From IMG/VR virus record IMGVR_UViG_2541047726_000006, positions 1 to 18,343 of that record: 18,343 nucleotides of DNA; one strand, written 5' to 3'. Positions 4,899-6,334 of this stretch are shown piece after piece. Numbering within the stretch: the stretch's first letter is position 1; each line of letters begins with the position of its first letter. Under the pieces are notes generated by a model, which worked only from the letters and a program-made list of their open reading frames with translations, was not told the origin of the DNA and made no database searches. This stretch comes from a virus (lineage: Duplodnaviria > Heunggongvirae > Uroviricota > Caudoviricetes). A program made the translations under genes and the position numbers.

Positions 4899-5078
4899 AT
4901 GTCAGAGCAGGAGTTAAAACTTGGTGCATGTTATTGTGTTCTCAAGGAGCTGGTACACATGCTTCCATCTACTCAGTATCAACAGTTAGTTGGCAATTTA
5001 AATCAGCGAATCGAAGCTATGTTAAAATCTGATGGTTTTAATAATGAAGTGGTCAACAAAAACTGGCCACCGAGTTAG
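4899..5078 (+). CDS. Hypothetical small protein, antisense to the dicB operon; C-terminus altered by the IS insertion
   Basis: ATG at 4899 preceded by GGAGGA (4889-4894). Encodes [48 protein letters not shown], then runs into the IS end and terminates inside it. Joining the flanks across the TAA target site restores a 64-aa ORF ending ...NVETLMLKRYLDGLIR. Confidence 0.3.
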
Positions 5079-5971
5079 AGTTTTTTCCAGTATCGATTTT
5101 CCGATTCGTTTGGTGGTAACCCACCATTATATTCGTGCGGTCTTAGTGCGCTGTAATATCCAACGATATAGTCCGTTATTGCGTGAGCTGCATCGCTGAA
5201 GCTTACATAGCCCGTCGCCGGCACCCATTCGTTCTTCAGACTCCTGAAGAAGCGCTCCATTGGGCTGTTATCCCAGCAGTTTCCACGCCGACTCATACTC
5301 TGCCTGATCCGGTATCTCCACAGTAACTGCCGGAACTGCCTGCTCGTATAATGACTGCCTTGATCGCTGTGGAACATCACCCCGACGGGCTTACCACGGG
5401 TTTCCCATGCCATTTCCAGTGCTTTCATGGTAAGCCTGCTGTCCGGCGAGAACGACATGGCCCAGCCCACTGGTTTTCTTGCGAACAGGTCGAGAACAAC
5501 GGCGAGGTACGCCCAGCGCTTACCCGTCCAGATATAGGTCACATCACCGCACCACACCTGATTTGGCTCGGTCACGGCGAACTGCCGTTCAAGGTAGTTA
5601 GGGATAGCAACATGTTCATGACCACCACGTTTATACCGGTAAGTCGGCTGCTGACAGCTGACCAGCCCCAGCTCTTTCATGAGTCTGCCAGCAAGCCAGC
5701 GCCCCATCTGGTAGCCTCTCTGGGTTGCCATTGTGGCGATGCTTCTTGCTCCGGCAGAGCCGTGGCTGATGCCATGCAGTTCAAGTACCTGGCTGCGTAA
5801 TACAGCCCGTCTGCCGTCTGGCTTTTCAGGACGGTTTTTCCAGTATTTGTAGCTGCTGCGATGGACCCCGAACACATGGCAGAGAGTGGCCACAGGATAA
5901 CGCGCCCTGAGTTTCCCGATTATCGAGAACTGTTCAGGGAGTCTGACATCAAGAGCGCGGTAGCCTTTTTT
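5075..5971 (-). CDS. IS911-like transposase OrfB frame (DDE catalytic domain), expressed as an OrfAB fusion by -1 frameshifting
   Basis: This reading frame is open from the slippery site at 5965-5971 to the stop at 5075-5077 and lies -1 relative to orfA. It contains an IS3-type DDE integrase core (WCGDVTYIW...[10 protein letters not shown]...). First Met is at 5893, but there is no convincing independent start. Confidence 0.85.
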
Positions 5972-6222
5972 AATATTTCATTTTCCATTTCAATACGTTG
6001 TAGCTTTTTCCTGAGCTCACGGATTTCAATTTGTTCCGGGGTAATAGGGGAGGCTTTTGGTGTTTTTCCCTGCCGCTCATCACGTAATTGTTTCACCCAT
6101 CGCGTCATTGTGGAAAGGCCGACATCCATAGCGCTGGCTGCATCTGCCACGGTGTAATTCTGGTCAACGACCAGTTGAGCGGATTCGCGTTTAAACTCTG
6201 CGCTGAAATTTCTTTTTTTCAT
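5920..6222 (-). CDS. IS911-like transposase OrfA (HTH and leucine zipper)
   Basis: 100-aa [54 protein letters not shown]...[18 protein letters not shown], starting at 6222 inside the longer track ORF. The slippery heptamer lies near its 3' end. Confidence 0.9.
5965..5971 (-). other. Programmed -1 ribosomal frameshift site A-AAA-AAG
   Basis: Minus-strand sequence ATATTAAAAAAGGCT places the codons AAA-AAG (Lys-Lys) of OrfA at 5965-5970. The orfB frame is open across this site. Confidence 0.75.
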
Positions 6223-6334
6223 TATGGCACCTGTGTTGTTCTGAGGTGAGCATATCACCTCTGTTCAGGTGGCCAAATTCAGTAAACCACTTCATAACGT
6301 AGAAACGCTGATGCTAAAAAGATATCTTGATGGA

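Follow-up and report, generated by a model that had tools for sequence, protein, structure and literature searches.

An ISEc52 insertion in the dicB-type early-left operon of an Escherichia coli prophage

Insertion sequence (IS) elements were first discovered as polar mutations. In the classical cases, insertions of IS1, IS2, or IS3 in the gal, lac, and lambda early operons, the element lies between the promoter and the distal genes of a single transcription unit, and the same arrangement was found in the early-left operon of a lambdoid prophage of Escherichia coli. The operon lies in an 18,343-nucleotide (nt) stretch of Caudoviricetes DNA (IMG/VR record IMGVR_UViG_2541047726_000006, positions 1 to 18,343), called the window below, in which a complete copy of the IS3-family element ISEc52 separates the candidate early-left promoter (PL) and the promoter-proximal genes from the dicF small RNA (sRNA) gene, dicB, and the genes beyond. 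Our reading, to which we give a probability of about 0.6, is that an intact ISEc52 was recently inserted in one E. coli lineage, that it most likely inactivated a small gene on the opposite strand, and that it would impose partial polarity on the distal genes as a near-neutral, hitch-hiking insertion.

The well-studied relative of this operon is the dicBF operon of the E. coli K-12 prophage Qin (ydfABC-dicF-dicB-ydfDE). In Qin, DicF and DicB are made solely from a polycistronic transcript that starts at dicBp, a repressor-controlled promoter upstream of ydfA; no internal promoter has been detected, the transcript is processed by RNase III as well as RNase E, and both DicB and DicF are toxic upon derepression of the operon (PMC10448788). 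By sequence comparison, the window operon is a mosaic relative of the Qin operon. Its order on the minus strand is candidate PL, a ydfA-like gene, an open reading frame (ORF) of 116 amino acids (aa), the IS, dicF, dicB, a ydfD-like gene, and the exonuclease (exo), excisionase (xis), and integrase (int) genes. As in Qin, the ydfA-like gene, dicF, dicB, and the ydfD-like gene follow one another in a unit transcribed away from the immunity region, and Pfam, RefSeq, and the comparison with K-12 agree that the dicB, YdfA (DUF1391), and YdfD (DUF1482) genes have the orientation and order of a dicB-type operon. Homology to Qin was found in two stretches only, 4219-4840 (dicF with its leader, plus the start of dicB; 92%) and 6694-6875 (ydfA; 88%).

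The two operons differ in several respects. In place of ydfB-ydfC, the window has the truncated 116-aa ORF and a convergent 64-aa gene on the plus strand. Its immunity region is of the Rac/YdaS-YdaT type and includes a relBE pair and a repressor of phrog_5736, whereas that of Qin is dicA/dicC. The window exo, xis, and int genes are intact, while in K-12 an IS2 fragment separates ydfE and intQ, both of them pseudogenes, and only in the window is there an IS between the promoter and dicF. The preliminary description of the window had placed the IS between the promoter-proximal genes (ydfA-like and a hypothetical gene) and the dicF-dicB-ydfD-exo-xis-int genes, with the transposase genes pointing in the direction of the operon; the Pfam, Rfam, RefSeq, and phrog assignments agree with this placement, and all of these genes, those of ISEc52 included, are on the minus strand.

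The element and its empty site

The element starts with TGAAGTGG and ends with CCACTTCA, as read directly, which gives it TG...CA tips, and its length is within the IS3-family range of about 1.2-1.5 kb. The terminal inverted repeats, IRL beside orfA and IRR at the opposite end, are imperfect, about 27-28 nt long, and 79% complementary according to the repeat finder. The OrfAB protein reconstructed by a -1 shift at the slip site is 382 aa long and free of stops. With OrfA, the slip site, and OrfAB intact, this copy of ISEc52 is apparently transposition-competent; the two independent insertions of identical ISEc52 copies in related prophages, described below, bear on this predicted mobility. The 1250 bp were 100% identical to many copies labelled 'IS3-like element ISEc52' by RefSeq and 94.4% identical at the nucleotide level to a copy annotated as IS911 in strain D1. 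The sequence comparison indicates that the earlier label 'IS911-like' is fair and that the precise name of the element is ISEc52. Like IS911, it belongs to the IS3 group of the IS3 family and has a length of 1250 bp, TG...CA tips, imperfect inverted repeats of about 27 nt, a 3-bp target-site duplication, orfA in frame 0 and orfB in frame -1, an A-AAA-AAG slip site, and an OrfAB of 382 aa; the sole difference from the IS911 of strain D1 is 5.6% nucleotide divergence, and the window element is another ordinary copy. All of the IS3-family hallmarks examined by sequence (ends, target-site duplication, overlapping ORFs, helix-turn-helix and DDE domains, and identity) are present. The direct reading, inverted repeats, ORFs, and RefSeq identity thus support the earlier claim of a complete 1250-bp IS3-family element at 5045-6294. 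It is an already catalogued IS, nothing new in kind, and literature searches on ISEc52 biology or on IS insertions in dicB operons gave nothing specific.

The empty site was reconstructed by joining the window sequence ending at 5044 to that starting at 6298, and was searched for in 5,426 complete E. coli genomes. A 285-bp empty site was found uninterrupted, with a single TAA, in 152 of these genomes (148 at ≥99% identity). The IS-free carriers include ATCC 25922 and strains of O104:H4 and ST131; in ATCC 25922 the sequence of the site is ...GGTTTTAATAACGTAGAAAC... and contains one TAA. When a 1,548-bp version of the empty site was used, it matched at 99.8-99.9% across exactly 1,547-1,548 bp. 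Because the empty site has one TAA in 152 genomes, the TAA repeat that flanks the element is a true target duplication, as the preliminary description had proposed, and not a chance repeat. That description had also considered that the element might be ancestral, with related genomes showing the same sequence without the duplication; the comparison found instead that IS-free single-TAA alleles are common, which indicates that the insertion is derived.

The window's IS junction was absent from all 5,426 genomes. The product of the ORF fused to the IS (EQP40908.1/WP_021523402.1) was found on one public contig only, KE699390.1 (GCA_000456965.1), which matched the window exactly over the 6,180 bp compared (window 1899-8078). 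This distribution indicates a recent insertion, private to a single E. coli lineage.

Expression of the genes beyond the insertion

In the mechanism that we propose, an intact ISEc52 inserted at the spot richest in AT of a lambdoid prophage of the dicB type that is integrated next to potC. The insertion, in the 3' part of the small plus-strand gene, replaces the last 15 residues of its product and most likely inactivates it. On the opposite strand, it adds 1.25 kb to the untranslated early-left spacer between candidate PL, the ydfA-like gene, and the 116-aa ORF on one side and dicF-dicB-ydfD-exo-xis-int on the other, and poorly translated IS RNA would lower distal expression upon derepression without abolishing it, which is to say that polarity would be partial. 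A drop is expected because the homologous dicF and dicB of K-12 are expressed only by read-through from a promoter upstream of ydfA. The insertion leaves intact the sequence homologous to that of the DicF precursor (up to 4840), which it precedes by about 205 nt in the operon sense. Since the operon is normally repressed, the insertion would most likely be a near-neutral hitch-hiker and not adaptive. We have moderate confidence that the distal genes would be partially attenuated upon derepression, with no activation. It was suggested earlier that the insertion uncouples the distal genes from PL, 'locking in' and 'detoxifying' the prophage; this is plausible, and the sequence neither demonstrates nor contradicts it.

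The -35 of the PL region (7017-7062) and its neighboring motifs TACTTGACTTAA, GTTTATTAAAC, and (C)ACTAAAC recur inverted in the PR region (8029-8084; repeats within 8005-8084). This is the layout expected of common operators, which makes 7017-7044 a good candidate for PL, and the shared motifs are probably operators of the phrog_5736 repressor.

On RNA that enters the element from outside, the IRL sequence GGCCACCUG was predicted to pair with CAGGUGCC over the Shine-Dalgarno sequence of orfA (6225-6275, minus strand). The pairing appeared in both the minimum-energy and the centroid structures, with weak z values of -1.6 to -1.9. If real, it would leave the whole IS untranslated on PL transcripts, which weakly favors polarity, and it could guard against activation of the transposase by read-through.

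The main competing explanation is that the insertion is transcriptionally silent. In other words, PL transcripts would pass through the IS, the distal genes would be expressed as before, and the damaged small gene would be the sole consequence. We regard this as unlikely, although a number of observations lean toward it and weigh against partial polarity. No intrinsic terminator was predicted on the operon (minus) strand within 5045-6294, and read-through could be near complete. The IS sense RNA has no C-rich, G-poor bias of the rut-like kind that would load Rho. The IS genes are co-directional with the operon, so no convergent transcription arises, and ribosomes may translate orfA on the read-through RNA, which they would thereby shield from Rho. 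The IS-free operon already tolerates an untranslated spacer of about 760 nt upstream of dicB. The window element differs in this from the classical polar insertions, as it has no predicted terminator or Rho-loading signature in this orientation. Two further points weigh in the same direction on our reading as a whole: the assignment of 7017-7044 as PL comes from motif sharing alone, and a second insertion nearby hints that neutrality may be wrong. Set against silence are the classical polarity of IS elements, the roughly 850 nt of orfB past the orfA stop that would be translated by a minority of frameshifted ribosomes only, and the predicted structure, by which the orfA Shine-Dalgarno sequence may be masked on RNA initiated outside the IS.

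The second insertion is in FDAARGOS_1293, the closest complete genome, which matches the window exactly over 1-5044 and at 99.5% identity to the right of the IS. Its ISEc52 copy (L001 10039-11288) is 100% identical to that of the window and in the same orientation. FDAARGOS_1293 was considered as a carrier of the window's own insertion and rejected, for direct alignment places its IS within the 116-aa ORF, at window position 6588-6590 and 294 bp nearer the promoter than the window's insertion, with GAT as the duplicated target. IS3-family elements transpose by a copy-out-paste-in mechanism (PMC9330008). Because the donor copy should therefore stay in place and the window has a single GAT, the two insertions are independent.

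With about 153 carriers, two independent ISEc52 insertions in the same orientation, both between candidate PL and dicF and with different target duplications (TAA and GAT), could indicate that such insertions are selected. A break in this interval would shield the host from the toxicity of DicF, DicB, and YdfD and would block excision, and IS hits would accumulate there; that DicB and DicF are toxic upon derepression (PMC10448788) is in keeping with this. We find such selection doubtful. Each allele is confined to a single genome and has not spread, the pattern expected of neutral or slightly deleterious events, and the interval is kept whole in 151 of the 152 complete genomes that carry the module (6298-6900 uninterrupted). 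Two hits within about 1.8 kb hint at a permissive or selected target but do not stand clearly above chance. Prophage DNA and AT-rich DNA are generally permissive targets for IS elements, and the window's insertion site is in the locally most AT-rich 100-bp segment (30% GC). Polarity itself, on which the supposed advantage depends, is only inferred.

IR-like sequences near both targets had at best 15 of 27 matches, no better than background, and the match that overlaps the FDAARGOS_1293 site was treated as a coincidence. IS insertion in prophage early regions is commonplace, as seen in the IS2 fragment at ydfE/intQ of K-12 Qin and the IS911 of strain D1. The D1 copy (L003 5660-6908) belongs to the early-right operon of a related prophage of the dicB type, where it separates the ydaT-like gene from the replication-organizer gene; for this reason it was rejected as a third hit in the same interval.

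Least tenable, and in our view very improbable, is activation of the distal genes by an outward or hybrid promoter at IRR that would make dicF and dicB independent of the prophage repressor: an outward -35 is present in the IRR of IS911-type elements and can combine with a -10 in the flank into a fusion promoter (PMC9330008), a TTGACC lies 6 nt from the IRR tip facing dicF, and no terminator is predicted that would stop transposase transcripts of the weak IRL promoter inside the IS, but the hexamers at 15-19 nt from TTGACC (CCATCA, CATCAG, ATCAGA, TCAGAT, and CAGATT) include no acceptable -10, a consensus scan found no minus-strand promoter there, and constitutive expression of DicB and DicF would be toxic and unlikely to persist. 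A hybrid promoter was rejected on these grounds. The preliminary description had allowed for the distal genes being driven by read-through or by an IS-borne outward promoter and had left the net effect uncertain; the uncertainty stands, and no outward promoter is evident.

This insertion of a known element is an ordinary event with little importance beyond one strain. It does complete a natural set of alleles, consisting of the GCA_000456965.1 strain, FDAARGOS_1293 with its insertion at a distance of 294 bp, and the IS-free carriers, about 150 in number, among them ATCC 25922. With this set one could gauge what a sense-oriented IS3-family element does to read-through in a prophage early operon that encodes the toxic DicF and DicB. 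If selection did operate, IS insertion would be a route by which the host blunts DicF/DicB/YdfD toxicity and excision while keeping the genes.

The interrupted small gene

The IS-free form of the small plus-strand ORF encodes the 64-aa protein WP_001295058.1, annotated as 'MULTISPECIES: hypothetical protein [Enterobacteriaceae]', which is found on at least 1,000 contigs and belongs to phrog_4987. In the window, residues 50-64 (VETLMLKRYLDGLIR) are replaced by 10 IS-encoded residues and a stop. The preliminary description had the last 16 codons of the ORF at 4899 lost to the IS, which agrees with the replacement of 15 residues and a stop.

Several lines of evidence suggest that this ORF is more than a chance reading frame. 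A GGAGGA Shine-Dalgarno sequence lies 6 bases upstream of the ATG at 4899, and homologs of equal length in Salmonella (86% aa identity) and Citrobacter (72%) have the same convergent position beside a DUF1391-type early-left region. Pairwise ratios of non-synonymous to synonymous substitution (dN/dS) were 0.22-0.32 in the coding frame, the lowest of the six frames, in a small sample, and the other five frames contain 4-8 stops. From its sequence the ORF looks like a real, conserved protein-coding gene under purifying selection, and the comparison shows that an ORF annotated merely as hypothetical behaves like one. The AlphaFold model, built from a 7-sequence alignment, had a pLDDT of 88.9 and helices at residues 3-20, 24-43, and 49-63. 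Since the insertion takes residues 50-64, the predicted third helix is lost, and the gene is most likely inactivated. A tblastn search of 50,697 phage records with the small ORF gave no match, although the ORF belongs to phrog_4987.

The function of the gene was sought in IraP, the name given by its source to one of the Citrobacter homologs; sub-threshold matches to PF10796 (IraP) were found on the same region in three homologs. The 64-aa form itself matched PF10796 at E=0.062 and 14.4 bits, below the cutoff of 23.2, and had no NCBIfam (NF007598) match. The cutoff was reached solely by a Citrobacter gene call of 103 aa, which takes in upstream sequence (24.2 vs 23.2 bits). BLASTP against K-12 IraP gave no match, hhalign against an IraP alignment gave a non-significant probability of 38%, a profile search of 1.84 billion representatives returned 5 family members and no IraP, and Foldseek of the AlphaFold model against the PDB gave no match below E=3. 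Identity of the 64-aa ORF with the IraP anti-adaptor is unproven, as membership of the family was not supported by Pfam, NCBIfam, BLASTP, hhalign, the profile search, or Foldseek. It would be improbable, in our estimation, that the PL-dicF interval is a recurrent, selected ISEc52 target that blunts toxicity and excision and that the disrupted 64-aa gene also encodes a prophage-borne, distantly IraP-like, three-helix protein with an effect on the stress regulation of the host.

The stop of the 116-aa ORF overlaps the 3' end of the intact small ORF by 12 nt (6335-6346). Together with the truncation of the 116-aa ORF, the overlap suggests a mosaic joint at which the small gene was acquired.

Features of the window

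The coordinates of the element, its target sites, the small gene, and the surrounding prophage genes are collected in Table 1. The hairpin between candidate PL and the relB/relE pair could insulate that pair from the early-left operon.

Table 1. Coordinates of the ISEc52 insertion and neighboring features in the window
Feature	Position	Strand	Evidence or remark
Integrase	1-1119	-	RefSeq annotation of identical sequence; adjoins potC in those genomes
Excisionase (xis)	1088-1357	-	phrog_629; RefSeq annotation
RecE-like exonuclease, 812 aa	1419-3857	-	Pfam Exonuc_VIII, Rv2179c-like
ydfD-like gene (DUF1482)	3950-4138	-	Pfam PF07358, E=2.9e-15
dicB	4135-4323	-	Pfam PF05358, E=6.4e-37
dicF sRNA gene	4507-4558	-	Rfam RF00039, 76.7 bits, full length (gathering score 48)
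Chimeric small ORF, 59 aa (EQP40908.1/WP_021523402.1)	4899-5078	+	residues 1-49 native, 50-59 and stop IS-encoded
TAA target-site duplication, left copy	5042-5044	.	reading and empty-site comparison
ISEc52, complete 1250-bp IS3-family (IS911-like) element	5045-6294	-	100% nt match to RefSeq-named copies
IRR, reads TGAAGTGGTCAACAAAAACTGGCCACC; outward-facing -35-like TTGACC is the complement of 5051-5056	5045-5071	-	repeat finder and reading
orfB frame, rve/DDE integrase core	5075-5971	-	PF00665, E=1e-31; NCBIfam transpos_IS3, 302.8 bits (cutoff 160 bits)
orfA, 100 aa, HTH_Tnp_1	5920-6222	-	Pfam PF01527, E=6.8e-14
A-AAA-AAG programmed -1 frameshift site, in correct phase inside orfA	5965-5971	-	IS position 324-330
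IRL, terminal inverted repeat beside orfA, ending CCACTTCA	6268-6294	-	repeat finder and reading
TAA target-site duplication, right copy	6295-6297	.	reading and empty-site comparison
Displaced 3' end of intact 64-aa ORF, 15 codons and stop	6298-6346	+	WP_001295058.1, phrog_4987
116-aa promoter-proximal ORF	6335-6685	-	phrog_2151 positions 1-101 of 212 only; RefSeq: truncated pseudogene
GAT, single and intact in the window; target-site duplication of the independent ISEc52 in FDAARGOS_1293	6588-6590	.	alignment
ydfA-like gene (DUF1391), first after candidate PL	6685-6837	-	Pfam PF07151, E=6e-29; 88% nt identity to K-12 ydfA
Candidate early-left promoter PL, TTGACT-16-TAAACT	7017-7044	-	consensus scan; motif sharing
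Hairpin, 21-nt arms	7065-7109		
relB/relE-type toxin-antitoxin pair	7129-7600	-	between repressor gene and candidate PL
Putative prophage repressor	7621-7992	-	phrog_5736; divergent from cro/YdaS-like gene
cro/YdaS-like gene	8090-8392		divergent from repressor; accompanied by a YdaT/CII-like gene

Further from the insertion, the window differs from the IS-free and IS-carrying relatives at 11345-12454. A DUF977 gene is intact in the window (135 aa, full-length Pfam match) and has an internal stop in ATCC 25922 and FDAARGOS_1293. Window 11456-12454 did not align to either of these genomes and is a mosaic replacement with DUF4406 and Ead/Ea22-like genes. A hok/sok type I toxin-antitoxin locus was found at 14184-14508 in the nin-like region (Rfam sok, 106.7 bits), and hokD is annotated in the matching RefSeq genome.

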